From Escherichia coli (GTDB lineage Bacteria; Pseudomonadota; Gammaproteobacteria; Enterobacterales; Enterobacteriaceae), in assembly GCF_044647545.1 (NCBI RefSeq), contig NZ_CP172818.1: a stretch of 64,000 bases of DNA. The stretch is one strand, 5' to 3'. Both the position numbers and the translations under genes were made by a program. The notes beneath the pieces were generated by a model that did not search any database, was not told the origin of the DNA, and saw only the letters and a list, made by a program, of their open reading frames with translations. The stretch's first letter is position 1, and each line of letters opens with the position of its first letter. Positions 12,872-57,152 of this stretch are shown in pieces.

Positions 12872-13141
12872 AGCGGTCGTCTCCGTCAGTCAAAGCTTTG
12901 CGGCGATTATACCTGAACCATAATAAAAGGCGGATTTTTCGGCGTGAGCGTTGTAAGTAAAAGCCATACGCTTTGTGAGACATTGCCGATAGTCTTTATG
13001 CGAAATAGCAGAGAAAATTCTGCGATGCATGTCAAATAAGCTATATAAATCAGTTAATTGCTTTTATATAAAACTCTGAAAATGTGCAAATACTGATGGC
13101 GGTTGATTGTTTGTTTAAAGCAAAGGCGTAAAGTAGCACCC

Positions 13142-13385
13142 ATAGAGCGAGGACGCTAACAGGAACAATGACTCAGGATGAGGGTCAGGAGCGCCAGGAG
13201 GCGAAGACAGAGGATTGTCAGGAAGACAAACGTCCGGAGACGTAATTAAACGGAAATGGAATCAACACGGATTGTTCCGGCTAATGGAAAAACAGGGTGT
13301 GTTGGCGGCCTGCAAGGATTGTAAGACCCGTTAAGGGTTATGAGTCAGGAAAAAAGGCGACAGAGTAATCTGTCGCCTTTTTTCT
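13142..13385 (+). ncRNA. csrC: CsrC small RNA (CsrA-sequestering)
   Basis: ATAGAGCGAGGACGCTAACAGGAACAATGACTCAGGATGAGGGTCAGGAGCGCCAGGAGG... with multiple GGA motifs and terminal hairpin GGCGACAGAGTAATCTGTCGCCTTTTTT; between engB and yihI. Confidence 0.85.
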
Positions 13386-13452
13386 TTGCTTGCTTTCTGT
13401 TAGATTCCGCCGCAAATCTATACTGAATAAAACGGCTAAAAGACGAACCATT

Positions 13453-13962
13453 ATGAAACCATCATCTTCAAACTCACGCAGCAAAGGTCATGCAAAAGCG
13501 CGTCGAAAAACACGCGAGGAGCTGGATCAGGAAGCTCGTGACCGTAAGCGTCAGAAAAAACGTCGTGGTCATGCGCCGGGCAGCCGCGCAGCGGGCGGTA
13601 ACACCTCGTCAGGCAGCAAAGGCCAGAACGCACCAAAAGATCCACGTATTGGCAGTAAAACCCCTATTCCATTGGGCGTGACTGAAAAAGTCACCAAACA
13701 GCACAAACCGAAGAGTGAGAAACCTATGCTTTCACCGCAGGCGGAGTTGGAATTACTGGAAACGGATGAGCGTCTGGATGCGCTGCTGGAACGTCTGGAA
13801 GCAGGCGAAACCCTGAGCGCCGAAGAGCAATCCTGGGTGGATGCTAAACTGGATCGTATTGATGAGTTGATGCAGAAACTCGGCCTCTCTTATGACGATG
13901 ACGAAGAAGAGGAAGAAGACGAGAAGCAAGAAGACATGATGCGTCTGCTGCGGGGCAACTAA
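13453..13962 (+). CDS. yihI: Der GTPase-activating protein YihI
   Basis: 169 aa from [23 protein letters not shown]..., basic N-terminus and acidic C-terminus; inside ORF 13390..13962. Confidence 0.85.
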
Positions 13963-14150
13963 CGGATTGCCGCCGTGGGCCTTCCCGTTCTGCTGATAAC
14001 CCTTCCGGTTATATGTTATCTGGTGTGGTTATTCGTTAAACTACAGCGGTTGTCGCGGCGACAAAAGTGGCTGCGCAACCGGCTGATGACCCGAAACGGG
14101 CATCCGCCGGTACGCCGTAGCCGCCAGAGACGCCATCGGAAGGAGTGAGC

Positions 14151-15524
14151 ATGTCTGTACAGCAAATCGACTGGGATCTGGCCCTGATCCAGAAATATAA
14201 CTATTCCGGGCCACGATACACCTCGTACCCGACCGCGCTGGAGTTTTCAGAAGACTTCGGCGAACAGGCGTTTTTACAAGCCGTGGCGCGCTATCCTGAG
14301 CGTCCATTATCTCTCTACGTACATATTCCGTTCTGCCATAAGCTTTGTTACTTCTGCGGTTGCAATAAGATAGTTACTCGCCAGCAGCACAAGGCCGATC
14401 AGTATCTGGACGCGCTGGAGCAAGAAATCGTCCATCGTGCACCGCTTTTTGCCGGGCGCAAGGTGAGCCAGCTGCACTGGGGCGGTGGTACGCCGACGTA
14501 TCTGAACAAAGCGCAAATCAGCCGTCTGATGAAGCTGCTGCGCGAAAACTTCCAGTTCAATGCCGATGCGGAGATTTCGATCGAAGTCGATCCGCGCGAA
14601 ATCGAACTGGATGTACTCGATCATTTACGCGCCGAGGGCTTTAATCGCCTGAGCATGGGCGTGCAGGACTTCAACAAAGAAGTGCAACGTCTGGTTAACC
14701 GCGAGCAGGATGAAGAGTTCATCTTTGCACTGCTTAACCATGCGCGTGAGATTGGCTTTACCTCCACCAACATCGACCTGATTTACGGTCTGCCGAAACA
14801 GACGCCGGAAAGTTTTGCCTTTACCCTGAAACGTGTGGCGGAGCTGAACCCCGATCGTCTGAGCGTCTTTAACTACGCGCATTTGCCGACCATTTTTGCT
14901 GCTCAGCGCAAAATCAAAGATGCTGACCTGCCGAGTCCGCAGCAAAAACTCGATATCCTGCAGGAAACCATTGCCTTCCTGACGCAATCGGGCTATCAGT
15001 TTATCGGGATGGATCACTTTGCCCGCCCGGATGACGAGCTGGCGGTGGCCCAGCGTGAAGGCGTGCTGCATCGTAACTTCCAGGGCTACACCACTCAGGG
15101 CGATACCGATCTGCTGGGGATGGGCGTTTCCGCCATCAGTATGATTGGCGACTGCTACGCGCAGAACCAGAAAGAGTTGAAGCACTACTATCAGCAAGTG
15201 GATGAACAAGGCAACGCGCTGTGGCGTGGTATTGCGCTAACGCGTGATGACTGTATTCGCCGCGATGTGATTAAGTCGCTCATCTGCAACTTCCGTCTGG
15301 ATTACGCTCCCATTGAGCAACAGTGGGATTTGCACTTCGCTGATTACTTTGCGGAAGATCTCAAGCTGCTCGCCCCGTTAGCAAAAGATGGGCTGGTGGA
15401 TGTGGATGAGAAGGGGATTCAGGTGACGGCGAAAGGTCGCTTGCTGATCCGCAACATTTGCATGTGCTTTGATACCTATCTGCGCCAGAAAGCGCGGATG
15501 CAGCAGTTCTCACGGGTGATTTAA
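14151..15524 (+). CDS. hemN: Oxygen-independent coproporphyrinogen III dehydrogenase HemN (radical SAM)
   Basis: 457 aa from MSVQQIDWDLALIQKYNYSGPRYTSYPTA, radical-SAM cysteine cluster CHKLCYFCGC. Confidence 0.93.
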   Translation: MSVQQIDWDLALIQKYNYSGPRYTSYPTALEFSEDFGEQAFLQAVARYPERPLSLYVHIPFCHKLCYFCGCNKIVTRQQHKADQYLDALEQEIVHRAPLFAGRKVSQLHWGGGTPTYLNKAQISRLMKLLRENFQFNADAEISIEVDPREIELDVLDHLRAEGFNRLSMGVQDFNKEVQRLVNREQDEEFIFALLNHAREIGFTSTNIDLIYGLPKQTPESFAFTLKRVAELNPDRLSVFNYAHLPTIFAAQRKIKDADLPSPQQKLDILQETIAFLTQSGYQFIGMDHFARPDDELAVAQREGVLHRNFQGYTTQGDTDLLGMGVSAISMIGDCYAQNQKELKHYYQQVDEQGNALWRGIALTRDDCIRRDVIKSLICNFRLDYAPIEQQWDLHFADYFAEDLKLLAPLAKDGLVDVDEKGIQVTAKGRLLIRNICMCFDTYLRQKARMQQFSRVI

Positions 15525-15591
15525 ATAGTGAATGGCGCTTCGTTTACAAAGTAGAAAACGAAAGCGCCATCAATGTGCTGAGAACAAGATT

Positions 15592-15744
15592 GCCTGATGC
15601 GCTGGGCAACAAAACCTGTAGAAATTATTGCTTTTGTAGGCCAGATAAGGCGTTTACGCCGCATCTGGCATCTGAGCATGATGCCTGATGCGACGCTGGT
15701 CGCGTCTTATCAGGCCTACGACTTTCTCCGCATCCGGCATAAAC
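15592..15744. repeat. REP/BIME cluster in the hemN-glnG intergenic region
   Basis: Repeated GCCTGATGCG...CTTATCAGGCCTAC and GGCCAGATAAGGCGTTTACGCCGCATC units. Confidence 0.6.
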
Positions 15745-15752
15745 AACGAGCT

Positions 15753-15863
15753 TCAGCTAAACAGCCCAATCATCGCGGCACACAGCACGGCAGCAACGGC
15801 AGTTTGCGGTGTGTGGCTGTCAACTGCGCCACTCGATACCAGATTAATTATTGATTCCAGCAT
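15753..15863 (-). CDS. yshB: Small membrane protein YshB (36 aa)
   Basis: Minus-strand ORF MLESIINLVSSGAVDSHTPQTAVAAVLCAAMIGLFS between hemN and glnG; a small protein of this name is annotated at this position in K-12 (from memory). Confidence 0.45.
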   Translation of the reverse strand: MLESIINLVSSGAVDSHTPQTAVAAVLCAAMIGLFS

Positions 15864-15974
15864 AATGACTCTCCCCGTTTTCCGGGCAAGATCATACTGA
15901 ACTTATCGGAACAGTAAAGCGCAAAATACCAGCAATTTGCGCTCAATAATCAATCTTTACACACAAGCCGTGAA

Positions 15975-17384
15975 TCACTCCATTCCCAGCTCTTTTAACT
16001 TCCGCGTCAGAGTGTTACGCCCCCAGCCGAGTAGCCGCGCCGCTTCCTGTTTATGCCCCTGCGTATGTCGCAACGCGGTCGTCAGTAACGTCCGCTCCAA
16101 CTCTGGTTGCGCTTCAGACAGCAAGTTTTGATGACCGGAACGTAGCGCCCGATCTGCCCACTGTGCTAACAGCGTTGCCCAACTGTCCGGCTGCATTTGT
16201 GAAGTGCTTTCCGGTACGGTTGATTCAAACAGTTCGCCAGGCAAATCCTGAATCAACACTTCCTGTCCGGCAGCCATTACCGTTAGCCAGCGGCAGGTGT
16301 TTTCCAGCTGGCGCACGTTGCCTGGCCACGCCAGACGCGTCAGAGCGGCTTCAGTTTCCGGATGCAGCAACTTTGCTTCTACGCCCAGCTCGCGAGCAGC
16401 AACTTGTAAAAAATGGTGTGCCAGACGGGGAATATCTTCCCGACGCTCACGCAGCGGCGGCAGATGAACACGGATGACGTTCAGGCGGTGGAACAGATCC
16501 TCACGGAACTTGCCTTCCTGCACCCGCTGTTCGAGATTCTGGTGAGTGGCAGCGATAATCCGCACATCCACTTTCACCGGTGCATAGCCGCCAACGCGAT
16601 AAAACTGACCGTCTGCCAGCACGCGCAGCAAACGCGTCTGCACATCCAGCGGCATATCGCCAATTTCATCGAGAAATAACGTGCCGCCATCGGCTTGTTC
16701 AAAACGCCCCTGACGAATGGTATTCGCGCCGGTAAACGCGCCTTTCTCGTGACCAAACAGTTCTGATTCGATCAAATCCTTCGGGATAGCCGCCATATTG
16801 AGCGCGATAAACGGCGCTTTGGCTCGCGGGCTGTGGCGATGCAGGGCATGAGCGACCAGTTCTTTACCAGTGCCGGATTCGCCGTTGATCAGCACGCTAA
16901 TGGAAGAACGCGAAAGTCGACCGATAATACGGAACACGTCCTGCATGGCTGGCGCTTCGCCGATGATATCGGTCGTTGGGCCGTTAAGCTGAACATTACG
17001 CGGCTGCTGCTGTTCCTGATAATGACTGATGGCGCGCTCAACCAGCGCCACGGCTTCGTCGATATCAAACGGTTTGGGCAGATAATCAAACGCCCCTTGT
17101 TGATAGGCGCTGACGGCAGCATCCAGATCGGAATGTGCGGTCATAATGATGACCGGAAGCATTGGATGGCGCTGTTTAATCTGCTTGAGCAGCGCCAGCC
17201 CGTCCATTCCCGGCATACGGATATCTGAAAGCAGTACATCCGGCGTTTTGCTCGCCAACGCCTCCAGTACTTCCGCGCCGTTCTCAAATGTCGTACAGGT
17301 TAAACCCGCTCCAGCGAGCGCACGTTCAAGCACCCAACGGATGGAACTATCGTCATCGACTACCCAGACTATCCCTCGTTGCAT
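15975..17384 (-). CDS. glnG: Nitrogen regulation response regulator NtrC (sigma-54 activator)
   Basis: 469 aa from [23 protein letters not shown]; receiver domain, AAA+ sigma-54 interaction domain ([14 protein letters not shown]), C-terminal HTH. Confidence 0.96.
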
Positions 17385-17395
17385 AAACGTCACCT

Positions 17396-18445
17396 TTATT
17401 TCCTGATAGGCAGGTAAACCGAGAACTCGGTATGACCTGGCCAACTGGTAAATTCAATTTTGCCTGAATGCTGATCAATCAAATTACGGGCGATGGATAA
17501 GCCAAGCCCGGTGCCACCTTCGCGGCCGCTGACCATCGGGTAAAACAGCGTATCCTGCAAATGAGGCGGAATGCCCGGCCCGTTATCTTCCACATCAATC
17601 CGCGCCGCCAGCCGATAGCGCTCGCCGTGCAAGGTCAGTTGAAACGCTGTGCGGGTACGCAGAATGATTTCACCACCCTCCGGCCCCAGCGCCTGTAGCG
17701 CATTGCGCACAATATTCAGCAAGACCTGTTCAATTTGATCCGGGTCGTGCGCCAGTTCCGGCAGGCTGGGATCGTAATCACGAATCAACCGCACGTTGTC
17801 CGGCAGTTCCATCGACACCAGCGTCACCACGCGTTCAGCCACTTTGTGAATACTTTCGGTAACGCGCGTACCGGGCAGCTGCGGCCCCAACAGACGGTCG
17901 ACCAGATTTCGCAGCCGGTCCGCCTGTTCGATAATTACTTTGGTATATTCGAGTAGTGACGGGTCAGGTAATGCCTTGCTGAGTAGCTGCGCCGCACCAC
18001 GTAAACCGCCAAGCGGATTTTTAATCTCATGCGCCAGGCCGCGCACTAAATCACGGGCAGCAACCTGCTGGGCGTGCTGTAGCTGTTCCTGACTTAAGCG
18101 GCGCTGGTTATCCATCGGTGCCATCTCCAGCAGGATCATGCCGTCCGGCATACGCTGGGCCGTCACAGAAAGGATATGCGAACGCCCGTCGATGACCAGC
18201 GTCACTTCGTTATCGGTAAAACCTTGCCCCGCCTCCAGACTTTCTTGCATCAGCTCGATATTTAATGAGAAGTAGCTCAACAGTTCCGGTAACGGTGTAC
18301 CAAACAATTTGCGGGAGCTTTGGGCGAGCAGTTGTTGCGCGGCGGGGTTGGCGTAATGGATCGCCAGGTTGTCATCGATTAACAAAATACTGTTAATCAG
18401 CGAGTTGAGGATCTGCCCAGCATCGGGCTGCGTGCCTGTTGCCAT
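17396..18445 (-). CDS. glnL: Nitrogen regulation sensor histidine kinase NtrB
   Basis: 349 aa, H-box LAHEIKNPL, ATPase region DNGPGI...GTGLGL. Confidence 0.96.
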
Positions 18446-18534
18446 AAAGCAGTCTCCTGAACAGGTTGCACCATTTTAGTGCATTATAGCTTTTTACGGA
18501 TAAAAAGCGCGAAGCATCAGAGAATTGACGGAGA

Positions 18535-18560
18535 AAAAAGCCCATGCAGAGATGGGCTGA
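18535..18560 (-). terminator. Rho-independent terminator downstream of glnA
   Basis: Minus strand reads AGCCCATCTCTGCATGGGCTTTTTTC. Confidence 0.55.
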
Positions 18561-18583
18561 AGTTTCCCGAACAACTTCAACTA

Positions 18584-19993
18584 TTAGACGCTGTAGTACA
18601 GCTCAAACTCTACCGGATGCGGAGTCATACGCACACGGTCATCTTCTTCGCGACGCAGAGCGATGTACGCATCGATCGCTTCATCAGTGAACACGCCACC
18701 GGCTTTCAGGAACTCGCGGTCCAGATCCAGTTCGTTCAGTGCTTCTTCCAGAGAACCAGCAACCTGTGGGATCTCTTTCGCTTCTTCCGGCGGCAGGTCA
18801 TACAGGTTTTTGTCCATCGCTTCGCCCGGATGGATCTTGTTCTTGATACCGTCAAGACCGGCCATCAGCAGGGCAGCAAAGCACAGGTACGGGTTAGCCG
18901 CCGGGTCCGGGAAACGTACTTCGATACGACGTGCTTTCGGAGAAGAAACCACCGGAATACGGATAGACGCAGAACGGTTACGCGCAGAGTAAGCCAGCAT
19001 TACCGGTGCTTCGTAGCCCGGGACCAGACGCTTATAAGAGTTGGTGGTCGGGTTTGCCAGGGCGTTAATTGCTTTCGCGTGTTTGATTACGCCGCCAATG
19101 TAGTACAGCGCCTGTTCAGACAGACCTGCGTATTTGTCGCCAGCAAACAGGTTAACGCCGTTTTTAGACAGCGACATGTGGCAGTGCATACCGGAACCGT
19201 TATCACCGAACATCGGTTTTGGCATAAAGGTCGCAGTTTTACCGAAGCGGTGCGCTACGTTGTGCACAACATATTTGTAGATCTGAATTTCGTCAGCTTT
19301 TTTGGTCATGGTATTGAAGCGGGTAGCCACTTCGTTCTGACCAGCAGTCGCTACTTCGTGGTGATGGGCTTCAACCACCAGACCCATCTGTTCCATCACC
19401 AGACACATTTCAGAACGAATATCCTGAGCCGAGTCTACCGGTGGAACCGGGAAGTAACCGCCTTTCACTGCCGGACGGTGACCTTTGTTACCACCTTCGT
19501 ATTGGGTGGAGGAGTTCCATGCGCCTTCGATATCGTCGATAGCAACGTGGGAACCGGAGATAGATGATCCGAAACGGATGTCATCGAACAGGAAGAATTC
19601 AGGTTCTGGCCCGAACAGTACGGTGTCGGCAATGCCAGTGGAACGCAGGTAATCTTCGGCGCGCTTCGCAATGGAGCGCGGGTCACGGTCATAGCCTTGC
19701 AGGGTGCCAGGTTCAAGGATGTCGCAACGGATAATCAGGGTGGAGTCGGCGAAGAACGGGTCAATCACTGCGGTGGATGCGTCTGGCATCAGCACCATGT
19801 CGGATTCGTTAATGCCTTTCCAGCCGCCAATCGAGGAGCCGTCAAACATTTTGCCTTCTTCGAAGAATTCAGCATTCACCTGATGAGCAGGGATAGTGAC
19901 GTGCTGTTCTTTACCTTTGGTATCGGTGAAGCGCAAATCAACAAACTTCACTTCGTGCTCGTTCAGCATCGTCAGTACGTGTTCAGCGGACAT
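18584..19993 (-). CDS. glnA: Glutamine synthetase
   Basis: 469 aa [42 protein letters not shown]..., adenylylation-site region NLYDLP. Confidence 0.97.
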
Positions 19994-20059
19994 ACTTTAA
20001 CTCTCCTGGATTGGTCATGGTCGTCGTGGTAACGAAATCTGCAATTATTTTGGCCGTGT

Positions 20060-20220
20060 CGCCGTAAAAAAGATAAAGCGAAAACTGTGCCAACTTTTAA
20101 ATTGCCCCTAAAAGGCGTTATCATGCTTAACATCGTGCAAAAGGGCTGCACCATGATGTGAATGTTGCACCAATATAGTGCTTCAATGGAAACATTAAGC
20201 ACCATATTGGTGCAATGGCC
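20060..20220 (-). promoter_or_regulatory. glnAp2 sigma-54 promoter with upstream NtrC binding sites
   Basis: Minus strand TTGGCACAGTTTTCGCTTTATC (GG/GC -24/-12 elements) at ~20076-20093; NtrC-type palindromes GCACCATATTGGTGCA and TGCACCA...TTGCACCA at ~20147-20217. Confidence 0.75.
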
Positions 20221-20365
20221 TTTGGATAACCCTTTTTATGCTCCGTGAAAGCGATCACAAAGGGACTCTGCAATACTTGTTTGCGGAGGATGTTTGTGAT
20301 CCTGTTTTGTAGTGCGATTAATCCGTGTACAATAACGCGCTATTTCTAATGCCTGAGGCAAAGTT

Positions 20366-22189
20366 GTGATCGAAAAATTGCGTAATATCGCCATCATCGC
20401 GCACGTAGACCATGGTAAAACCACCCTGGTAGACAAGCTGCTCCAACAATCCGGTACGTTCGACTCTCGTGCCGAAACCCAAGAGCGCGTGATGGACTCC
20501 AACGATTTGGAGAAAGAGCGTGGGATTACCATCCTCGCGAAAAACACCGCTATCAAATGGAATGATTACCGTATCAACATCGTTGATACCCCGGGGCACG
20601 CCGACTTCGGTGGTGAAGTTGAACGTGTAATGTCCATGGTAGACTCAGTGCTGCTGGTGGTTGACGCATTTGACGGCCCGATGCCGCAAACGCGCTTCGT
20701 AACCAAAAAAGCGTTTGCTTACGGCCTGAAGCCGATTGTTGTTATCAACAAAGTTGACCGCCCTGGCGCGCGTCCTGATTGGGTTGTGGATCAGGTATTC
20801 GATCTGTTCGTTAACCTCGACGCGACCGACGAGCAGCTGGACTTCCCGATCGTTTACGCTTCTGCGCTGAATGGTATCGCGGGTCTGGACCACGAAGATA
20901 TGGCGGAAGACATGACCCCGCTGTATCAGGCGATTGTTGACCACGTTCCTGCGCCGGACGTTGACCTTGACGGTCCGTTCCAGATGCAGATTTCTCAGCT
21001 CGATTACAACAGCTATGTTGGCGTTATCGGCATTGGCCGCATCAAGCGCGGTAAAGTGAAGCCGAACCAACAGGTTACTATCATCGATAGCGAAGGCAAA
21101 ACCCGCAACGCGAAAGTCGGTAAAGTGCTGGGCCACCTCGGTCTGGAACGTATCGAAACCGATCTGGCGGAAGCTGGCGATATCGTGGCGATCACGGGTC
21201 TTGGCGAACTGAACATTTCTGACACCGTTTGCGACACGCAAAACGTTGAAGCGCTGCCGGCACTCTCCGTTGATGAGCCGACCGTTTCTATGTTCTTCTG
21301 CGTTAACACCTCGCCGTTCTGCGGTAAAGAAGGTAAGTTCGTAACGTCTCGTCAGATCCTGGATCGTCTGAACAAAGAACTGGTACACAACGTTGCGCTG
21401 CGCGTAGAAGAAACCGAAGACGCCGATGCGTTCCGCGTTTCTGGTCGTGGCGAACTGCACCTGTCTGTTCTTATCGAAAACATGCGTCGTGAAGGTTTCG
21501 AACTGGCGGTATCCCGTCCGAAAGTAATCTTCCGTGAAATCGACGGTCGTAAACAAGAGCCGTATGAAAACGTGACGCTGGACGTTGAAGAACAGCATCA
21601 GGGTTCTGTGATGCAGGCGCTGGGCGAACGTAAAGGCGACCTGAAAAACATGAATCCAGACGGTAAAGGCCGCGTACGTCTCGACTACGTGATCCCAAGC
21701 CGTGGTCTGATTGGCTTCCGTTCTGAGTTCATGACCATGACTTCCGGTACTGGTCTGCTGTACTCCACCTTCAGCCACTACGACGACGTACGTCCGGGCG
21801 AAGTGGGTCAGCGTCAGAACGGTGTACTGATCTCTAACGGTCAGGGTAAAGCGGTCGCGTTCGCGCTGTTCGGTCTGCAGGATCGCGGTAAGCTGTTCCT
21901 CGGTCACGGTGCAGAAGTTTACGAAGGTCAGATTATCGGTATTCATAGCCGCTCTAACGACCTGACTGTAAACTGCCTGACCGGTAAGAAACTGACCAAC
22001 ATGCGTGCTTCCGGTACTGACGAAGCCGTTGTTCTGGTTCCGCCTATCCGCATGACTCTGGAACAAGCTCTGGAGTTCATCGATGATGACGAACTGGTAG
22101 AAGTGACTCCGACCTCTATCCGTATTCGTAAACGTCACCTGACGGAAAACGATCGTCGTCGCGCCAACCGCGCACCGAAAGACGATTAA
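20366..22189 (+). CDS. typA: Translational GTPase TypA/BipA
   Basis: 607 aa, G-domain motifs AHVDHGKTT and DTPGH, EF-G-like domains. Confidence 0.96.
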
Positions 22190-22206
22190 TTTCGTTTTTT
22201 AGTTAT

Positions 22207-22239
22207 AAAAAACCTGCCATCGCTGGCAGGTTTTTTTTT
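22207..22239 (+). terminator. Rho-independent terminator downstream of typA
   Basis: AAAAAACCTGCCATCGCTGGCAGG followed by TTTTTTTTT. Confidence 0.7.
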
Positions 22240-22405
22240 GCCTGTCGTGAGCGCACACCAATGCGAGTATCTCCCTTATAAGTCTGTGGTTACGTCAATA
22301 GAGAGCTTTGTCACAATTATCTGCAAAGTCATACGCCGTTAATTGCTTTCTTTTTTGGCGTAAGCGTAAGATGCTTCATCTGGTTTAAACCAAAAGGATT
22401 AAACA

Positions 22406-23115
22406 ATGGCGGAGAATCAATCCACCGTAGAAAATGCAAAAGAGAAACTGGATCGGTGGTTGAAAGATGGCATCACCACGCCGGGTGGAAAACTCCCTTC
22501 AGAAAGAGAGCTGGGAGAACTGCTGGGCATTAAACGTATGACGCTGCGCCAGGCGTTGTTGAACCTCGAGGCAGAATCCAAAATCTTCCGTAAGGATTGT
22601 AGGGGTGGTTCGTGACCCAGCCGCGATTTAATTACAGTCCGGAGCTGTCAGCGAGCTTTCAGCGGGCCGCAATTGAGCAAGGACGAGAGCCTTCCTGGGG
22701 GTTTACCGAGAAAAACCGTACCAGCGATATTCCCGAGACGCTCGCGCCACTGATCGCAGTGACACCATCAACTGAACTCTATCGCATCACCGGCTGGGGG
22801 GCGCTGGAAGGACATAAAGTTTTCTATCACGAAACATATATTAATCCTGAAGTTGCTCCGGGCTTTATTGAACAACTTGAAAACCACTCATTTTCTGCAG
22901 TCTGGGAAAAGTGCTACCAAAAAGAGACGGTAGTAAAAAAATTGATTTTCAAACCCGTCAGAATGCCGGGCGATATCAGCAAGTATCTTGGCGGTTCTGC
23001 GGGTATGCCAGCGATCTTAATTGAAAAGCATCGCGCCGACCAGCAAGGCAATATTGTCCAAATAGATATTGAATATTGGCGATTTGAGGCCGTAGACCTC
23101 ATCATTAATCTGTAG
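22406..23115 (+). pseudogene. yihL: GntR-family regulator YihL, split by an apparent 1 bp deletion near 22601-22610
   Basis: ORFs 22406..22615 (69 aa, winged HTH) and 22612..23115 (167 aa) lie in different frames; combined length equals the 236 aa expected for intact YihL. Confidence 0.7.
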
Positions 23116-23122
23116 GTGTTTT

Positions 23123-24103
23123 ATGGTGACAATAAATAACGCAAGAAAGATTCTACAACGTGTCGACACTCTTCCTCTTTATTTACATGCTTATGCCTTT
23201 CATTTAAATATGCGGCTGGAAAGAGTGTTGCCTGCTGATTTACTTGATATCGCAAGTGAAAATAATCTACGTGGCGTCAAAATCCATGTTCTCGATGGCG
23301 AGCGTTTTTCTCTTGGTAATATGGACGATAAAGAACTCTCTGCCTTTGGGGATAAAGCCCGCCGTCTGAACCTTGATATTCATATTGAAACCAGCGCCTC
23401 AGATAAGGCATCTATTGACGAAGCCGTCGCCATCGCGTTGAAAACTGGGGCATCGTCCGTACGTTTTTATCCACGTTATGAAGGTAATTTGCGCGACGTA
23501 TTATCGATTATCGCTAACGACATTGCCTATGTACGGGAAACGTATCAGGACAGCGGCCTGACTTTTACGATCGAGCAGCATGAAGATTTAAAAAGTCATG
23601 AGCTGGTGTCGCTGGTCAAAGAAAGTGAGATGGAATCTCTTTCCTTACTGTTTGATTTTGCGAACATGATCAATGCAAATGAGCATCCCATCGACGCTTT
23701 AAAAACGATGGCACCGCATATTACCCAGGTCCATATCAAAGATGCCTTGATCGTTAAAGAACCGGGTGGCCTGGGTCATAAAGCCTGTATTTCAGGTCAG
23801 GGTGATATGCCGTTCAAAGCGTTATTAACGCACCTTATCTGCCTGGGTGATGATGAGCCGCAGGTGACGGCATATGGCCTGGAAGAAGAGGTTGATTACT
23901 ATGCGCCGGCGTTCCGCTTTGAAGACGAAGATGATAATCCGTGGATCCCTTATCGCCAGATGAGTGAAACACCATTGCCAGAAAATCATTTACTGGATGC
24001 GCGGTTACGTAAAGAAAAAGAAGATGCAATTAATCAGATAAATCATGTGCGTAACGTACTACAACAAATCAAACAAGAGGCAAACCATCTTCTGAACCAC
24101 TAA
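23123..24103 (+). CDS. yihM: Sugar phosphate isomerase/epimerase (xylose isomerase-like TIM barrel) YihM
   Basis: 326 aa ORF; synteny yihL-yihM-yihN. Confidence 0.85.
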   Translation: MVTINNARKILQRVDTLPLYLHAYAFHLNMRLERVLPADLLDIASENNLRGVKIHVLDGERFSLGNMDDKELSAFGDKARRLNLDIHIETSASDKASIDEAVAIALKTGASSVRFYPRYEGNLRDVLSIIANDIAYVRETYQDSGLTFTIEQHEDLKSHELVSLVKESEMESLSLLFDFANMINANEHPIDALKTMAPHITQVHIKDALIVKEPGGLGHKACISGQGDMPFKALLTHLICLGDDEPQVTAYGLEEEVDYYAPAFRFEDEDDNPWIPYRQMSETPLPENHLLDARLRKEKEDAINQINHVRNVLQQIKQEANHLLNH

Positions 24104-24204
24104 TAAGTTTTAACTCATACGCAGTTAATAAAACCATTCCATATGAATGGTCGGTATCTTATTGCCTTTAAAACAGTGATTTTAAAAATCGCTTAGGGGA
24201 TGTT

Positions 24205-25470
24205 ATGCTCACGAAAAAGAAATGGGCGTTATTTAGTCTATTAACACTGTGTGGCGGTACAATTTATAAATTACCGTCGCTGAAAGATGCGTTTTATATC
24301 CCGATGCAGGAATATTTCCATTTGACCAATGGTCAAATTGGTAATGCTATGTCGGTAAACTCATTTGTCACCACAGTGGGCTTTTTTCTGTCTATTTATT
24401 TTGCCGATAAACTACCGCGCAGATACACCATGTCATTCTCACTCATTGCGACAGGATTACTGGGTGTTTATTTGACGACAATGCCGGGGTATTGGGGCAT
24501 CCTCTTTGTCTGGGCGCTATTTGGCGTTACTTGCGACATGATGAACTGGCCGGTCTTGCTCAAGTCGGTAAGTCGATTGGGCAATAGCGAACAACAAGGT
24601 CGGTTGTTTGGCTTCTTCGAAACAGGGCGTGGCATTGTCGATACCGTGGTGGCATTTTCTGCGTTGGCAGTATTTACCTGGTTTGGCAGTGGCTTATTAG
24701 GTTTTAAAGCAGGCATCTGGTTCTATTCCCTTATTGTGATTGCCGTAGGCATTATTATTTTCTTTGTCCTGAATGACAAAGAAGAGGCACCGTCCGTTGA
24801 GGTGAAAAAAGAAGACGGAGCATCGAAAAACACCAGTATGACCTCGGTGCTGAAAGACAAAACTATCTGGCTTATCGCTTTTAACGTCTTCTTCGTTTAC
24901 GCGGTTTACTGTGGCCTGACATTCTTCATTCCATTCCTGAAAAACATCTATCTATTGCCCGTTGCGCTGGTGGGGGCTTACGGCATCATTAACCAATACT
25001 GTCTGAAAATGATTGGTGGACCGATTGGTGGCATGATTTCAGATAAGATCCTGAAATCGCCAAGTAAATATCTATGCTACACCTTTATCATTAGTACCGC
25101 TGCGCTCGTACTGTTGATTATGCTGCCGCACGAAAGTATGCCGGTCTATTTAGGGATGGCATGTACGCTGGGCTTTGGCGCGATAGTCTTTACACAGCGA
25201 GCCGTATTTTTTGCACCTATCGGCGAAGCAAAAATTGCTGAAAATAAAACAGGTGCGGCGATGGCGTTGGGTAGCTTTATTGGTTACGCTCCGGCGATGT
25301 TCTGCTTCAGTCTGTATGGCTACATTCTGGATTTAAATCCGGGGATTATTGGCTACAAAATCGTGTTTGGCATTATGGCCTGCTTCGCATTCAGTGGTGC
25401 GGTGGTTTCCGTAATGCTGGTTAAGCGTATTAGCCAACGTAAGAAAGAGATGCTGGCGGCTGAAGCTTAA
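24205..25470 (+). CDS. yihN: MFS transporter YihN
   Basis: 421 aa ORF with ~12 hydrophobic segments. Confidence 0.85.
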   Translation: MLTKKKWALFSLLTLCGGTIYKLPSLKDAFYIPMQEYFHLTNGQIGNAMSVNSFVTTVGFFLSIYFADKLPRRYTMSFSLIATGLLGVYLTTMPGYWGILFVWALFGVTCDMMNWPVLLKSVSRLGNSEQQGRLFGFFETGRGIVDTVVAFSALAVFTWFGSGLLGFKAGIWFYSLIVIAVGIIIFFVLNDKEEAPSVEVKKEDGASKNTSMTSVLKDKTIWLIAFNVFFVYAVYCGLTFFIPFLKNIYLLPVALVGAYGIINQYCLKMIGGPIGGMISDKILKSPSKYLCYTFIISTAALVLLIMLPHESMPVYLGMACTLGFGAIVFTQRAVFFAPIGEAKIAENKTGAAMALGSFIGYAPAMFCFSLYGYILDLNPGIIGYKIVFGIMACFAFSGAVVSVMLVKRISQRKKEMLAAEA

Positions 25471-25475
25471 TTAAT

Positions 25476-25553
<78 letters not shown>

Positions 25554-25560
25554 TTTCACA

Positions 25561-26253
25561 TCAGAAGAAATACTTCGTCCCGATACGAATCTGGTTTTGC
25601 TCGCGGTGGTACGGTTCGACATTACGATCTAACCAGCGCAATTCAATATAGGGCAACCAGTGCTCATTAATGCGATAACGGAAGGTGTTAGTGATTTCCC
25701 AGTGATGCTTCGTACCATTGCTGCTATTGAAATCATTAATGTTATAAAAATAATGCGGTTCAAAGGTATATGAGAACTTATCGGTAATAATAAAGTTCCA
25801 GTAGTTGCCAATCTCGTAGCTGTCATTATTATCCAGATCACCGTTCAAATCGGTTGAGCTGTAGTTATTATGGTTAAAACGATTACGTACCGTCAGGTTA
25901 AACCATGGAGTAAATTTGTAGTTAACATCCAGATAAACAGCACCACCCGAACCGATACTCTTATCATTAATTAAGCCACCGGGCTGGATGGTTAATTTAT
26001 CGGTTGGTTTGAATAACGGATACCAACCTTCGATTTCGTTATATCCATGTTTGAGTTCATCTTCTCGCTGAAAGGTGTAGGTATTGGTTAACATAATACC
26101 CGCGCCCATATCGAAGTTATAACCCACACGTAGCATAACCTCGCCCTGATCGGAGGCGAGATTATATGCCTCCCTGTTTTCGACGTATGCGCCAGCAAAT
26201 ACCGAGGCAGAGGTCAGAGAGGATAATAGAATTATTGCATTAATCTTTTTCAT
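25561..26253 (-). CDS. ompL: Outer membrane porin OmpL
   Basis: 230 aa from MKKINAIILLSSLTSASVFA (signal peptide) ending in C-terminal Phe (..KYFF), beta-barrel-like composition. Confidence 0.85.
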   Translation of the reverse strand: MKKINAIILLSSLTSASVFAGAYVENREAYNLASDQGEVMLRVGYNFDMGAGIMLTNTYTFQREDELKHGYNEIEGWYPLFKPTDKLTIQPGGLINDKSIGSGGAVYLDVNYKFTPWFNLTVRNRFNHNNYSSTDLNGDLDNNDSYEIGNYWNFIITDKFSYTFEPHYFYNINDFNSSNGTKHHWEITNTFRYRINEHWLPYIELRWLDRNVEPYHREQNQIRIGTKYFF

Positions 26254-26319
26254 AATAAGTCCATTTTTAAACGTAGGGAGGCCGCCACCCACCAGGATGG
26301 AAATAGCGGCTATTGACAT

Positions 26320-27729
26320 TTATAACGTTACGGAAGCCGTTTTTTCTTCTGTCGCCATCTCTTTATTTTTGCGTTGGTTGATTTCCTCAATAATCAATGC
26401 AAACCGTTTTTCATTGAGTGTGTAAAAGAATCCCATCGTCAATGCAGCAATAATTGCCAGTGCACAAGGCCAGATAAAAATGAGCTGACGCAAACCCTGT
26501 AATGTCGCATCACTTTGCGCGATGTTGGGAACATAACCGATTTGCGTCAGCATAATGCCTGGCAAGAAGCCAGCAAGTGCGGCAGAAATTTTACGAAAGA
26601 AGGTATAACCGGTATAAACAGAACCTTCGGCACGAATACCGGTTTTCCATTCACCGTAATCTACGGTATCTGGCACCAGTGCCCAGTTCAGGCTGTTTAC
26701 AAAGGCCGTGCCAAAAAAGGCGACACAAGAGAACATGACGAAAGTGAAAGAGTTACTTCCCCAGAAATAATTCAGGATATCACCAACCGCCCATAGCACC
26801 ATGCCAGCTAAATAAACCTGTTTTTTACCAAAACATTTTACAGTTAATGGCACCAGTAATACGCCGACGAGGATACATCCCATACTGAAAAATCCCATCC
26901 ACGACAATAAATTAATATCATTCAGCACATACTGGGTGTAATAGACCTGAATCGCCAGTTTGATATTAAATGCCGCCAGGGTACACAGGTTAGCAATGCA
27001 CAAAACCAGCAATGGCGGATTACGAAATATCGCGCAAAAAGATTTGAGAATACTGGCTTTATGTCCGGTTGGCGTCGTGTCTACATAATGCTCTTTGACG
27101 CCTCTGTAGCACAGCATCATAAAAATAAAGCCACCAATGGAGAACATCAGTGCCGCGCAGGCATAACCGACGGTGGAGTCAGAAAAAAGCGACTGCAATG
27201 GAATAAATGCTACGGTACAAATCAATAGCCCTATGGTTGCGCCGCCCTGGCGGTAAGCCGCAAGCTGCGCGCGCTCATTCGGGTTTTTGGTAATTGCCGG
27301 GATCATCGCGCCATACGAGCAGTTCATCAGACTGTATGAAAGTCCAAACATCATAAACAGCGCGGTGGCAATCGTCGTTTTAACCGGCAAACTAAAAGTG
27401 GTGGCGATAAACTGGAGCGTTGCAATTAACGCCGCCGGAACCGCTGCATATAAAATAAAGGGACGAAATTTGCCTTTAGGCCCAATATTTTTCCGCGAGT
27501 CGAGTAAAAATCCGGTGAGCATATCGGTAAATGCGGTAAAAAACTTCGCCACCAGAAAGATAATCCCGCCATAGTAAGCAGGCATCCCTAATTCATCGGT
27601 ATAAAATTTGAGGAGATACAGAGTACCGATGCAGAGCATTAAATTCGAACCGACGTCGCCCATACCATAGGCGATTTTTTCCCGCAGATTCAGTCTTAAT
27701 GTCAGTGGATTATGGTCAGACATAATCAC
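26320..27729 (-). CDS. yihO: GPH-family sulfoquinovose importer YihO
   Basis: 469 aa ORF, sugar:cation symporter motifs (MGDVGSN, ~12 TM); first gene of the sulfoquinovose cluster by synteny. Confidence 0.85.
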   Translation of the reverse strand: MIMSDHNPLTLRLNLREKIAYGMGDVGSNLMLCIGTLYLLKFYTDELGMPAYYGGIIFLVAKFFTAFTDMLTGFLLDSRKNIGPKGKFRPFILYAAVPAALIATLQFIATTFSLPVKTTIATALFMMFGLSYSLMNCSYGAMIPAITKNPNERAQLAAYRQGGATIGLLICTVAFIPLQSLFSDSTVGYACAALMFSIGGFIFMMLCYRGVKEHYVDTTPTGHKASILKSFCAIFRNPPLLVLCIANLCTLAAFNIKLAIQVYYTQYVLNDINLLSWMGFFSMGCILVGVLLVPLTVKCFGKKQVYLAGMVLWAVGDILNYFWGSNSFTFVMFSCVAFFGTAFVNSLNWALVPDTVDYGEWKTGIRAEGSVYTGYTFFRKISAALAGFLPGIMLTQIGYVPNIAQSDATLQGLRQLIFIWPCALAIIAALTMGFFYTLNEKRFALIIEEINQRKNKEMATEEKTASVTL

Positions 27730-27765
27730 TCCTTATAACGCCCCGCAGGGCGTTGTTTATTATAA

Positions 27766-29187
27766 TTACGCCGTGCGTTTACGGGCTTCTATCTCTTCAA
27801 CAATGCGGACGTACATCTTCTCGTTCAGACTGTAGAAGCAACCCATTGCCACGATGGTGACTACTGCCAGTGCGCTTGGGTAGATGAAGATCAGTTGGCG
27901 CAACCCTTCGATAGTGTGGTCAGCCTGGGCGACGTTTGGCACATAGCCGATTTGCGTCAGCATCCAGCCTGGGAAGAAACCTGCCAGCGCCTGAGATACT
28001 TTGCGAAAGAAGGTGAAACCGGTGTAGACCGTACCTTCCGAACGCACACCGGTGCGCCACTCGCCGTACTCGACGGTGTCGGAAACCAGCGCCCAGTTCA
28101 GGCTGTTAACAAACGCTGAGCCGAAGAATGCCAGGCAGGAGAACGCCACGAAGCTGACCGAACCGCCGCCAAAGAAATAGTTGAGCAGATCGCCAAGCAC
28201 CCAAATCAGCAGGCCGCCGATATAGACCTTCTTCTTACCAAAACGTCTGACTGCGCCGGGCATCAGGAACACGCCGATGAAAATACAGCCCATGCTGAAA
28301 AATCCCATATATGACAACAGGATGGGATCGTTGAGCACGTACTGGGTGTAATAGACCTGAATGGCGAGCTTGACGTTAAACGCCCCTAAAGTGCAGAGGT
28401 TGGCAATACACAGAATGAACAGTGGGCGGTTACCAGCAATCGCGCGGAAAGACTGCAACAAGCCAGGCTTTTTTTGCGCCGGATTGGTAGGTTGGGTTTC
28501 GACATAACGCTCTTTCACGCCCGAGTAGCAGATCCACATAAACAGCAGGCCGAACAGTGAAAACAGCGTGGCGGCGAAGATATAGCCAAGTTGCTGATTA
28601 CCTTCGATAAGATTCATAACCGGCACGAATCCCACCGTACACAGCAGCAGGCCTAATGTAGCGCCACCCTGACGCCATGCTGCCAGCGATGCACGTTCGT
28701 TGGGGTTTTTAGTAATAGCGGGGACCATCGCGCCATACGAGCAGTTCATCATGCTGAAAAACAGTCCGTAAAGCATAAACAGGATGGTGGCCATCACCGT
28801 TTTACCGGTGACATCGAACGGCGTACCGATAAAGTTGGCGATCGCCAGCAGGGTGACCGGGAATGACGCATACAGAATAAAAGGACGGAACTTGCCTTTT
28901 GGGCCGATCTTGCGTCGGGAATCCAGCATGATGCCTGTTCCCATATCGGTAAACGCAGTAAAGAATTTTGAAATCAAAAAGATAATGCCGCCATAGGTGC
29001 CAGGCAGCCCCAGAACGTCGGTATAAAACTTCAAAAGATAAAGCGTACCAATATCCAGCAGGATGTTAGAGGCCAGGTCGCCAATACCGTAAGAGAGTTT
29101 CTCTTTAAAGGGCAGGCGTAAAGTTGCTGGATCTTCCGTTGTGATGTGACTCATCGTTGTTCTCCCTTTGCCCGTGAGTTTCCCCAC
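27766..29187 (-). CDS. yihP: GPH-family transporter YihP (paralog of YihO)
   Basis: 473 aa ORF; strongly similar to the YihO ORF in this window (e.g. LYLLKFYTD, GGATxGLL, FNxKLAIQVYYTQYVLND). Confidence 0.85.
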   Translation of the reverse strand: MGKLTGKGRTTMSHITTEDPATLRLPFKEKLSYGIGDLASNILLDIGTLYLLKFYTDVLGLPGTYGGIIFLISKFFTAFTDMGTGIMLDSRRKIGPKGKFRPFILYASFPVTLLAIANFIGTPFDVTGKTVMATILFMLYGLFFSMMNCSYGAMVPAITKNPNERASLAAWRQGGATLGLLLCTVGFVPVMNLIEGNQQLGYIFAATLFSLFGLLFMWICYSGVKERYVETQPTNPAQKKPGLLQSFRAIAGNRPLFILCIANLCTLGAFNVKLAIQVYYTQYVLNDPILLSYMGFFSMGCIFIGVFLMPGAVRRFGKKKVYIGGLLIWVLGDLLNYFFGGGSVSFVAFSCLAFFGSAFVNSLNWALVSDTVEYGEWRTGVRSEGTVYTGFTFFRKVSQALAGFFPGWMLTQIGYVPNVAQADHTIEGLRQLIFIYPSALAVVTIVAMGCFYSLNEKMYVRIVEEIEARKRTA

Positions 29188-29199
29188 GGGCGGATGTGA

Positions 29200-31236
29200 T
29201 TAGATGCTTTTTAACGACGCGAACAGTGCCGCCCATTCGCTATCGGCGCGATAAAAGACCGGCGGTTTACCGATGGGCGCATTAACGGTAACTTCCCCGC
29301 CCCGGAACGCTTCACCCGTCCAGGCATGGACCCAGTTATCCTCCGGCAGATAGAGCGTCCAGTCGCTACGGCCTTCTTCATGCACCGGAGCGACCAGAAT
29401 GTCGCGGCCTAACAGGTACTGATATTTCAGGGTGTAGGTCTGCGCGTCGTCTTCGTAATGCAGGAACAGCGGGCGCATAACCGGCAGGCCGGACTTCGCA
29501 TTCAGCGCGACGGCCTCTTTCAGGTAAGGTTTCAGGGTGGTGAAGACGGTGGTCATACGGGCAAAATGGGCGATGGTTTCCGCGTCGCCGTCAAACTGCC
29601 AGTTGTCGCCAGGACGGTTACCTTCGTGGGTGCGCATCATCGGCGTGAAGGCGCTGAAATCGCACCAGCGCAGCAGCAGCTCTTTGCTGCGCTTCATCTC
29701 AAACAGGGTGGTGTAACCGCCAATATCGCTGTGATGCAGGCCATGTCCGGTCATTGCCAGCGACAGCGCCGCCGGGACAACCGACGCCAGGCCATCGTCG
29801 AGACTCCAGTCGACGTTCTGGTCGCCCGCCCACATCATGGTGGAGTATTTCTGGCTACCGGTAGAACCGGCGCGCATAAAGAAAAGGATCTCGCCAAGCT
29901 TGCCCGTTTCTTCAAGGGCTTCGTAGTTACATTTCGCCCACAGTGCGGGCCAGGCGTTATGCATAATTTCCGCGCTGACGCCGTTATGCAGGTAAGTGTC
30001 GGTGGGCAGATACTCGCCGAAGTCAGCCATCCAGCCGCCGCAGCCGAGTTCAATCATGTTCTTTTTGATCACTTCCTTGAACCAGGCGTAGGCTTCTGGA
30101 TTGGTGAGATCGACAACGCCGCCATAGAACTCGCCAAACTCCACCAGATAGTCGCCGCCAGAGGCATCTTTTGCCAGATAGCCGTGTGAAGCCGCCTCGG
30201 CGCAGAGGTCCTTATCGCTGGCAACATACGGGTTGATGTAGGCGAGGAACTGCACGCCTTCTTTGTTCCACTGTTTAATACGCGAATCCAGTTGCGGATA
30301 GTTTTCGCTGTTCCACTTCCAGTTCCACATCACACGTTTACCAAACGAGGTCATACGGATCCCGGACCAGTCCTGCGCCCAGATGCCGTTGACCTTCACG
30401 CCCGCGTTACGCATGGTGTCCAGTTTCTTCTGGCACACCTCAGTGCCGCCCTGAATGCCGAGCGTTACCCCGTCATAAATCCAGTCGGGCAGTTCTGGCT
30501 GGCGTCCCAGCAGGGCAGTTAATTTTTCCAGCAGGGAGATGTATGTATCAGCACATTCAAAACGCAGCGTTGCTTTGTCTTCCCACAGCGCCAGTTCATG
30601 GTATTCCGGGGCGCTAAAGTCGAAGTTCATGTAGCAACTGTTATCAACATGGCAGTAATACTTCTGCGTGCTGACAAACGTAGGCTGTGGGAAGAAAGTC
30701 CAGTAATAGTCGCCGCCCGCGTTCTCTTTGCAGTCGGCCTGCCAGGTGACATAGGTTTGCTTGTTGCGACCAACGCCTTGTTCACTGGTCCATAGCGGGA
30801 ACGGTTTGCCGCGCAGATCAAAGTAGGAGAATTGTTCACCGCAGCCGTAGATATGGTCCTCTGGTTGAGCGGCAAGGCGCAGCCAGATACGGTTGTGGTT
30901 AAGGTTGTCGTTTTGTAGTTCCAGCAATAAACGGCCCTGTTCGTCGGCAGAGATACGCAGCGTGGCGCTAATGTCAGAACCACGGCTGAAATGGATTAAC
31001 CAACCATCCGGTGACTGGCTGACGATGGCGTCGGTAAGCGCAATTTTCTCCTGTAGTTTATCTTTAATGCTGAAATTGCCGCGGAACATATCGATATCCG
31101 CAATACCTGAACCAATCCATAAACAAGGATTATCTTTGCTATGGGTTAAAATAAGACGCTGTTGAAAATGTAGGGTAAAACTGTCGTTATTCTGATGAAA
31201 CTGAAAATCTGGTAATTGTGGGCGTGGCGTATCCAT
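29200..31236 (-). CDS. yihQ: Sulfoquinovosidase (GH31 alpha-glucosidase family) YihQ
   Basis: 678 aa ORF with GH31-type catalytic region (GIWAQDWSG, WMADFGE). Confidence 0.9.
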   Translation of the reverse strand: MDTPRPQLPDFQFHQNNDSFTLHFQQRLILTHSKDNPCLWIGSGIADIDMFRGNFSIKDKLQEKIALTDAIVSQSPDGWLIHFSRGSDISATLRISADEQGRLLLELQNDNLNHNRIWLRLAAQPEDHIYGCGEQFSYFDLRGKPFPLWTSEQGVGRNKQTYVTWQADCKENAGGDYYWTFFPQPTFVSTQKYYCHVDNSCYMNFDFSAPEYHELALWEDKATLRFECADTYISLLEKLTALLGRQPELPDWIYDGVTLGIQGGTEVCQKKLDTMRNAGVKVNGIWAQDWSGIRMTSFGKRVMWNWKWNSENYPQLDSRIKQWNKEGVQFLAYINPYVASDKDLCAEAASHGYLAKDASGGDYLVEFGEFYGGVVDLTNPEAYAWFKEVIKKNMIELGCGGWMADFGEYLPTDTYLHNGVSAEIMHNAWPALWAKCNYEALEETGKLGEILFFMRAGSTGSQKYSTMMWAGDQNVDWSLDDGLASVVPAALSLAMTGHGLHHSDIGGYTTLFEMKRSKELLLRWCDFSAFTPMMRTHEGNRPGDNWQFDGDAETIAHFARMTTVFTTLKPYLKEAVALNAKSGLPVMRPLFLHYEDDAQTYTLKYQYLLGRDILVAPVHEEGRSDWTLYLPEDNWVHAWTGEAFRGGEVTVNAPIGKPPVFYRADSEWAALFASLKSI

Positions 31237-31554
31237 AAATAATCTCCATAGAGTATAAAGCTAATATTTCATGCCATCCTGTTGTTACAGGTTTCATTAA
31301 TTAAAGATTGTGTGCTATAAATAAAACCCCATAAGTGATATATAAAAACTTTTTCAGCCCGGCGGATTGCCGCCATTTTTAACCAAAAATGCCAGTTACA
31401 ATAATAACTAACAATAAACGGAGCAGAATCCAGCCGGGAATTCCCATCCCTTTTATCAACATAGAACCGGAGGCAATCAGCAACAAAAAGACCATCACAC
31501 GGAACACTTTGACTGAAAGCGTTTATGCACATATCTCCAACAAGCGAACCGAGA

Positions 31555-31945
31555 ATCAGGAAAACAAAAAACACCAGTTAAAAAAAGAAACATCAAAATC
31601 CCCCCCCCCCGCCCCCCCCGCCCCCCTTTTTGGGGAAAAAAAGGGTCCGAGGCCCCGAATCCCCCGGGCCCAATTCCAGCATACCTACACCCCCGCCCCG
31701 CCCCCCGCCCCGCTCGCCGCTACTCGCCGATACGCCGCGACCATAACGTCAAAACGACAGACAAGAAATAAACATAAAAAAAAAAAAAAAGAAAAGGATC
31801 CCCCTACCCATTAAAAACGTACATACAAACACACAAACAAACAACAAAAAAAAAAATAACGCCCCCCCAACACAAAAAAAAAAACCCCAACAAAAAGAAA
31901 AAAAAAAAAAAAAAAAAAAAAAACACCCCCCAAAAAAAAAAAAAA
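31555..31945. other. Anomalous low-complexity tract (A+C only; homopolymer runs of C and A up to ~26 nt)
   Basis: Directly visible: CCCCCCCCCCCGCCCCCCCCGCCCCCC, AAAAAAAAAAAAAAAAAAAAAAAAAA and similar; G nearly absent for ~250 bp; no plausible coding frame. Confidence 0.9.
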
Positions 31946-32008
31946 CATAATATTTCCTGTTGTGTAAATACAACCCTAAACAATGATCTCGTTCTTTTCT
32001 TAATAAAA

Positions 32009-34220: not shown

Positions 34221-34235
34221 TTTTGTATCCCCATC

Positions 34236-56539: not shown

Positions 56540-57125
56540 GGGGAAGAAAAAAAAAAAAAACATTTGTTTGGGGAGGAGAGGGAAAAAAAAAAATTAAGGG
56601 AACAACGAGATTGTGGAAGAAGCCGGAGAGAAAAAAGCGGCAAAAAAAGAGAGAGAGGGGGAAAAAAAGCAGACAAAAAAAGGGAGACGGAAAAAGAGCG
56701 CGAGAAGGGGAAAAAGAGGAGAAGCGGGGAGCGAGAAAAAAAAACCCACCTCTCTTCTTCTCTGGGAAAAAAAAGCGGGAAAATAAAGGGAAAAGAAGGG
56801 GGGAGAAGAGTGGAGAAGACCACAAAAGAGAGGAGTGTTGTTGGAAAGAGAAGAAGTCGCGGGGTCCCCCGCAGGGGGGAGGGGGAGAAAAAGGGGTGTT
56901 TTCGCAAGAAAAAGAAGAAGGAAAGAAGGGGGGAGTGCCGGAGGAAGTGTGAGTAGAAAAACGAATGAGGGGGGAGCTATATGAAAGAAGGGGCGGGGGC
57001 AGGGGGTCATTCGGAAAAAAAAAAGAATGTTGAAAAAAAAGAAAGAAAAGGAAAAATTAAAGAAGAAAAGAGGAGGGGAGGGAGAAAGAAAATTCGGGAT
57101 GCGGGGCAGGAGGGTGCGCGGTGCT
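56540..57125. other. Anomalous ~590 bp polypurine (A+G) low-complexity tract
   Basis: Directly visible: GGGGAAGAAAAAAAAAAAAAA..GGGGAGGAGAGGGAAAAAAAAAAA..; plus strand almost devoid of pyrimidine runs; overlapping ORFs in several frames encode only low-complexity K/E/R/G or P/S/F/L peptides. Confidence 0.9.
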
Positions 57126-57152
57126 GGATATTTTCCGGCACTTCGCAACTCA

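Follow-up and report, generated by a model that had tools for sequence, protein, structure and literature searches.

In the stretch of Escherichia coli DNA analysed here, which is 64,000 nt long and is hereafter called the window, the gene for the regulator YihL is written as two consecutive open reading frames (ORFs) rather than one. This raises the question of whether yihL has been inactivated in the sequenced organism, whether its two halves might still be functional, or whether the break arose during sequencing or assembly.

The split reading frame and its lesion

The two ORFs are on the plus strand in different frames, the first starting at an ATG and encoding 69 aa, the second starting at a GTG and encoding 167 aa, with the coordinates (Table 1) described in an earlier sequence-only reading. 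Its assignment of the locus to the GntR-type regulator YihL agrees with the Pfam domains, the gene order and the nucleotide identity, orthology being supported by the typA-yihL-yihM-yihN arrangement and by 99.4 % nucleotide identity to annotated yihL genes. The first ORF scores 64.3 bits against the Pfam GntR model (PF00392; cut-off 27), matching HMM positions 2-61 of 64, with the last three positions, which form the second wing strand, missing through the frameshift; the second scores 78.7 bits against the UTRA model (PF07702; cut-off 23.8), matching positions 1-140 of 141. After the 1-bp deletion these domains lie in different frames, and are not found on one polypeptide. As written, yihL reads as a disrupted copy and not as a functional member of the HutC subfamily. 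Of 5,426 complete E. coli genomes, 4,421 gave a match to the locus in a megablast search with positions 22350-23150; the gene is annotated there as 'yihL: GntR family transcriptional regulator', the best matches being 99.4 % identical and having 802 bases in the record against 801 in the query; the locus is absent from about 1,000 of the 5,426, or about a fifth.

Table 1. Features of the yihL locus and its surroundings, and other disrupted yihL alleles. Positions are those of the window, except for the other alleles.
Feature	Position	Strand	Description
ORF1	22406..22615	+	yihL codons 1-64, then C-R-G-G-S and a stop; GntR winged-HTH without the last wing beta-strand (native KGWFV)
ORF2	22612..23115	+	yihL codons 70-236; Val70 GTG as start; complete UTRA effector/dimerisation domain
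yihM	23123-24103	+	sugar-phosphate isomerase/epimerase family; intact, K-12-identical
yihN	24205-25470	+	MFS transporter; intact, K-12-identical
Variant patch	22598..22764	+	167 bp; C>T 22598, delA, G>A 22650, G>A 22683, T>C 22755, G>A 22764
yihL-yihM-yihN island	22224..25587	+	matches K-12 MG1655 and strain 300709 throughout, apart from the six changes of the variant patch (22598-22764)
typA intrinsic terminator	22213..22239	+	CCTGCCA-TCGC-TGGCAGG, then T9; left island junction inside
Perfect 12-bp palindrome TGGTTTAAACCA	22381..22392	.	14 nt upstream of the yihL ATG; fits the HutC-subfamily GTnTAnAC pattern
rhaT lesion	63742	-	1-bp deletion (CCC>CC) and TC>CT 10 bp away; gene runs off the window end
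Other yihL disruption, L003	1843-2814		IS110-family transposase insertion
Other yihL disruption, L005			TGG>TAG nonsense
Other yihL disruption, L004			delA in AAAA
Other yihL disruption, L006			delG
Other yihL disruption, L009 (E. coli 178900)			+G in a GGGG run
Other yihL disruption, L010-L012			+T

The cause of the split is, as had been proposed, a 1-bp deletion: alignment with an intact yihL, 711 bp long and encoding 236 aa, gives exactly one gap, of 1 bp, and with intact YihL at this length a reference that is naturally shorter or longer is not the cause. The summed length of the two products (69 and 167 aa) had been taken to point to the same 236 aa protein; this matches the length of YihL, yet the exact fit is partly a coincidence, as the first ORF consists of 64 native residues and five others. 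It ends in ...FRKD-CRGGS where the native protein has ...FRKD-RKGWFV, G67 being kept by chance, and its stop overlaps the GTG of the second ORF (Val70) in the sequence GTGA at 22612-22615.

Alignment with two intact alleles, which gave one gap and four substitutions, places the loss at 22600/22601, where one A is missing from the AA dinucleotide directly 5' of GGGG: the reference has GTAAGGGG and the window GTAGGGG (in the wider context, GATCGTAAGGGGTGG has become GATTGTAGGGGTGG, and the window letters at 22595-22605 are GATTGTAGGGG). The junction had previously been located inside a G-run at about 22601-22610; in fact the deletion adjoins this run, and GGGG is present in both the window and the reference. 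Restoring the frame across 22600/22601 would need a -1 shift. Three nucleotides upstream of the deletion is a C>T substitution at 22598 (CGT>TGT, R65C) that abolishes a GATC site, and with one A restored the encoded YihL equals that of K-12 except for R65C. Both changes belong to a patch of six variants (Table 1), of which those at 22650, 22683 and 22764 constitute a common natural yihL allele whilst the other three are private; the four substitutions besides R65C are all synonymous third-position transitions. R65C was found in an otherwise intact YihL in one case, a Shigella flexneri draft with a different allele background. The private substitutions at 22598 and 22755 exchange GATC and GATT before a G, with one Dam site lost (GGATCG>GGATTG) and another gained (TGATTG>TGATCG), which could be a coincidence or an effect of methylation on basecalling. 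A basecalling error related to Dam sites is not borne out by the other GATC sites of the window, none of which shows a change.

The regulator of K-12 (b3872, a putative GntR-family protein) lies at the same locus in island DNA that is identical save for six positions; relative to it, the deletion falls at codon 66, next to R65C, and splits the frame into the 69- and 167-aa ORFs. The closest solved relatives, NagR/YvoA of B. subtilis (2wv0, 4u0v) and DasR of Streptomyces (4zs8), are distant proteins having the same architecture of winged HTH (wHTH) and UTRA domains, but here the two domains are on separate ORFs. Residues 12-216 of YihL align to residues 16-219 of YvoA (E=5e-13), and constructs of the isolated NagR/YvoA DNA-binding domain align to YihL 12-70. 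The best NCBIfam match of YihL, over its full length, is to PhnR (TIGR03337), a regulator of 2-aminoethylphosphonate utilisation, with 183.4 bits against an equivalog cut-off of 296.75; unlike that system, the neighbours of yihL (the isomerase-like yihM and the MFS gene yihN) are not phn genes. With a score below the cut-off and these neighbours, identity with PhnR was rejected.

The allele is private to one record. A 76-nt query with the junction at its centre matched 4,252 complete E. coli genomes, none of which has either the deletion or the C>T substitution, the best match (97.4 %) consisting of the gap and the mismatch. The exact 69-aa product has a single public source among about 15 billion proteins, an NCBI contig of 4,499,902 bp. 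Exact-pattern scans of the GTDB species representatives and JGI metagenomes for the junction and for the C at 22755, carried out without a positive control, returned nothing. The 167-aa product does occur elsewhere, each time with another lesion upstream: an insertion, a nonsense mutation or a small indel (Table 1). These alleles share the C-terminal product, and their lesions fall in the last 50 bp or so before Val70, but none combines C>T with delA, and each lesion differs from the one described here. Three of the records, L010-L012, also have broken yihM and yihN genes, which suggests error-prone assemblies or decaying loci. In public assemblies yihL has been disrupted more than once and independently.

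The backbone, the yihLMN island and damage elsewhere in the window

Chromosomes of the ST648 lineage (phylogroup F) match the right third of the window at 99.7 % identity, and relative to MS6198 there are no substitutions over positions 2945-22236, 25554-31307, 31946-40893 and 43507-56251, about 53 kb in all. The frameshift in rhaT is common to the window and ST648: at this site 59 complete E. coli genomes match with 100 % identity, and PGAP labels the MS6198 gene 'frameshifted'. Unlike the lesion in yihL, it marks a genuine, inherited pseudogene. When about 60 conserved proteins were compared with the window by tblastn, only yihL and the inherited rhaT were found to be split; with these proteins otherwise in order, about 53 kb matching MS6198 and the damage localised rather than diffuse, a generally error-prone assembly was rejected. 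So was an origin from Shigella, there being no IS elements in the 64 kb and the backbone being of ST648 type. The division of fdoG (46052-49102, minus strand) into ORFs of 804 and 195 aa is no lesion: K-12 FdoG matches over its full length by tblastn with one '*', the selenocysteine codon TGA that this gene normally has in frame.

The yihLMN island, by contrast, is of K-12 type, the stretch containing it (22150-25620) having 99.7 % identity to K-12, and the ST648 genomes to which the window otherwise corresponds do not have it. MS6198 lacks yihLMN and has, between typA and ompL, a radical-SAM/HAD island, STM4011-4015; this Salmonella-like ST648 island (22414-28161 of L017) encodes a Cof-type HAD hydrolase, two radical-SAM proteins, a hydrolase and two proteins of unknown function. 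The interval between typA and ompL (22237-25553 in the window) is a replaceable island, occupied by yihLMN in approximately 4,400 of the 5,426 complete E. coli genomes.

Three-way alignment locates the change from ST648-type to K-12-type sequence on the left within 22224-22236, where 13 bp are shared, and the change back on the right within 25554-25587, where 34 bp are shared. The left junction falls in the intrinsic terminator of typA: the SNPs at 22220 and 22223 in its loop are of ST648 type, and the sequence is of K-12 type from 22237 onwards, whilst the T9 run at 22231-22239, within which ST648 diverges, is of K-12 type and has no length error. Natural recombination importing yihLMN is unlikely on these grounds, as it would have required both crossovers to lie no more than 13 and 34 bp from the limits of homology; two natural crossovers in such slivers are very unlikely because kilobases of flanking sequence of about 98 % identity were available. 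The junctions would hence seem too tight for recombination of the RecA type on both sides. They are exactly what a chimera defined by alignment would give, in which sequence from the sample is used wherever reads align and that of a template or a second strain elsewhere.

Other damage in the window coincides with structural differences between K-12 and ST648. Of 144 differences between the window and MS6198, 137 are concentrated in 4.8 kb (7.6 % of the window), in zones without a colinear K-12 counterpart; of the remaining seven, the multi-copy 23S gene accounts for six and the border of the island for one. In the yihQ-yihR interval (31308-31945), a tauE/safE-family gene of ST648 decays through single-base deletions into homopolymer junk consisting of A and C only (CCCCCCCCCCCGCCCCCCCC, with runs of C11, C8, A15, A26 and A14), and 100 % identity resumes abruptly at 31946; this junk is non-biological sequence. 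In the frvA-rhaM interval (56252-57143), the ST648 carbohydrate-porin gene is truncated and garbled, with junk of A and G only at 56530-57115. Spurious ORFs arise from the junk in the porin zone, for instance 56594..57148 on the minus strand.

A third zone, at 40894-42753, contains an alpha/beta-hydrolase gene with seven small indels and one substitution, flanked by sequence with no differences at all; intact in MS6198 (about 302 aa), it is reduced here to ORFs of 160, 82 and 89 aa. A 1-bp deletion at 42106 (GGAGGAAAGGGG>GGAGGAAGGGG) also affects the neighbouring higB-like toxin gene, in the same context as that in yihL, an A before GGGG. Both alleles are private, the best match being 98.4 %, and the region coincides exactly with a segment absent from K-12. 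That the tauE, porin and hydrolase genes are old, decayed pseudogenes was rejected, the alleles being private, dominated by indels with nearly no substitutions, and ending in homopolymer junk. Such lesions cannot have built up naturally in a lineage that is free of substitutions along about 53 kb.

The window also lacks a further 43, 37 and 5 bp at rrf-mobB, glnA-glnL and the yiiF site, three places where ST648 has less sequence than K-12. At 2939-2945, the 43 bp lost relative to MS6198 fall at the 3' end of the 5S rRNA gene and in its terminator hairpin, the Rfam 5S model still matching at 2834-2948 (77.4 bits). The glnA-glnL intergenic region (18558-18571) is shorter by 37 bp and 1 bp than that of MS6198 and by about 148 bp than that of K-12, the missing piece including a GC-rich hairpin; in K-12 this is the region of the GlnZ sRNA. 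Compared with the ST648 copies, a REP/BIME sequence between rhaD and rhaA (58424-58720) has around 20 single-base deletions, mostly of T and G, and scarcely any substitutions. The contig itself, at 4.50 Mb, is 0.4-0.8 Mb smaller than the matching ST648 chromosomes (4.94-5.31 Mb), as expected if strain-specific islands could not be rebuilt.

Origin of the frameshift

On the comparison of these sequences, we think it rather probable that the frameshift is not a true mutation of the sequenced organism and arose as a by-product of chimeric assembly. An ST648-type backbone would have been reconstructed on, or co-assembled with, a K-12-like genome, through either reference templating or a mixture of strains, and yihLMN, missing from ST648, would have been brought in from the K-12-like sequence, at what would be the only place in the window where a K-12-type version was kept. 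The frameshift would then lie at the edge of a read-sized patch (167 bp, six variants) within an otherwise K-12-identical island, and we infer that the lesion itself is noise, coming from stray or low-coverage reads or from a consensus error. The sequenced organism may have no yihL at all.

Chimeric assemblies, whether templated or mixed, have the same pattern of a backbone with a foreign island and junctions at the exact limits of homology, and, as here, garbled or truncated sequence at structural differences and an undersized chromosome. In one respect the window is unlike a chimera that is purely reference-templated: the natural polymorphisms in the yihL patch imply that a second real E. 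coli contributed. The patch is derived from real yihL DNA and is not random noise, because four of its five substitutions are synonymous third-position transitions and three equal a common natural allele; the deletion could accordingly be a true feature of that donor.

That the deletion is a genuine loss-of-function frameshift private to this strain, with yihL an ordinary pseudogene, we regard as possible though doubtful. The sequence leaves no doubt about the deletion, natural synonymous polymorphisms surround it in the patch, and R65C is known from an intact yihL elsewhere. Moreover, the gene is dispensable, is missing from the fifth of genomes noted above and is independently disrupted by IS insertion, nonsense mutation and indels, and the other conserved genes of the window are intact, the assembly outside the damaged zones being essentially free of error. 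However, three private changes within 160 bp contrast with 0 private substitutions along about 53 kb elsewhere, the island junctions are near base-exact in a backbone lineage that lacks the island, and every other private lesion of the window can be shown to be non-biological.

The sequence as written cannot encode full-length YihL. Were the allele real, it would yield a 69-aa wHTH fragment whose last wing strand is missing, accompanied at most by a second polypeptide containing only UTRA. Such a truncated wHTH protein, deprived of that strand and of the UTRA domain through which dimers form, would be unable to dimerise or to sense an effector, and repression should be lost. If YihL represses yihLMN as other HutC-type regulators do, then the operon, of which yihM and yihN (23123..25470) are presumed to be the downstream genes, would be derepressed, an effect that Rho polarity over the second ORF, if untranslated, might counteract. 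The palindrome TGGTTTAAACCA upstream of yihL is a plausible candidate for a YihL auto-operator controlling yihLMN; GTnTAnAC occurs seven times in the window, against about 16 occurrences expected by chance, such that a single match is not significant.

It is very unlikely that the two ORFs constitute a functional split regulator, produced through termination and reinitiation at GTGA as separate polypeptides, or a wHTH-only protein with altered regulation. Besides the overlap of stop and start codons at 22612-22615 and the presence of the whole UTRA domain in the second ORF, such an arrangement would be favoured by a Shine-Dalgarno-like element, AGGGGTGG, upstream of the GTG; its duplex with the 3' end of 16S rRNA, at -7.8 kcal/mol against only -5.4 for the yihL ATG, ranks with the strongest 9 % of random 20-mers, those reaching -6 kcal/mol or lower. 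However, this element and the GTG are incidental to the intact gene, in which the duplex reaches -8.4 kcal/mol; the last wing beta-strand is gone from the first ORF; and occurrence in one assembly only gives no sign of selection. The stronger proposition, that the deletion is real and both halves are made from one mRNA to give, for example, a weak, non-inducible repressor plus a free effector-binding domain, seems still more improbable.

A homopolymer error in the G-run, which the sequence-only reading had named as its alternative to a real mutation, has hardly any likelihood left. Although the lesion adjoins GGGG, and an additional G is present in the same run of E. coli 178900 (L009), the change is not a slip in a G homopolymer because the run is four long in both window and reference and the missing base is an A, from a run of two; in addition, there is a substitution 3 nt away, and no length error is seen in longer homopolymers of the vicinity, for example the T9 at 22231-22239. 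Programmed -1 ribosomal frameshifting, or transcriptional slippage, restoring full-length YihL was rejected as practically without likelihood: a -1 shift would regain the frame and a rare AGG codon precedes the stop, but there is no X XXY YYZ heptamer in AAG GAT TGT AGG GGT GGT TCG TGA (22592-22615) and no long A/T run, the two-frame arrangement occurs in none of the 4,252 genomes, and the relatives all have a single frame.

Meaning for the record and for yihL

Sequence of ST648 type and of K-12 type is mixed, along with garbled stretches, in the 64-kb window and probably throughout the 4.50-Mb record. Calls of pseudogenes and of gene content made from it, such as the presence of yihLMN or the absence of STM4011-4015, tauE and the porin, are consequently untrustworthy without the reads, as would be any 'genome reduction' inferred from its size.

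YihL is among the E. coli transcription factors of unknown function (PMC9308461), and the Keio deletion of its gene serves as a neutral linked marker (PMC4759930). A real loss of yihL would be biologically unremarkable, because the gene has been disrupted independently elsewhere and its deletion is used as a neutral marker. At best, then, the allele would represent another private null allele of a dispensable, uncharacterised regulator.
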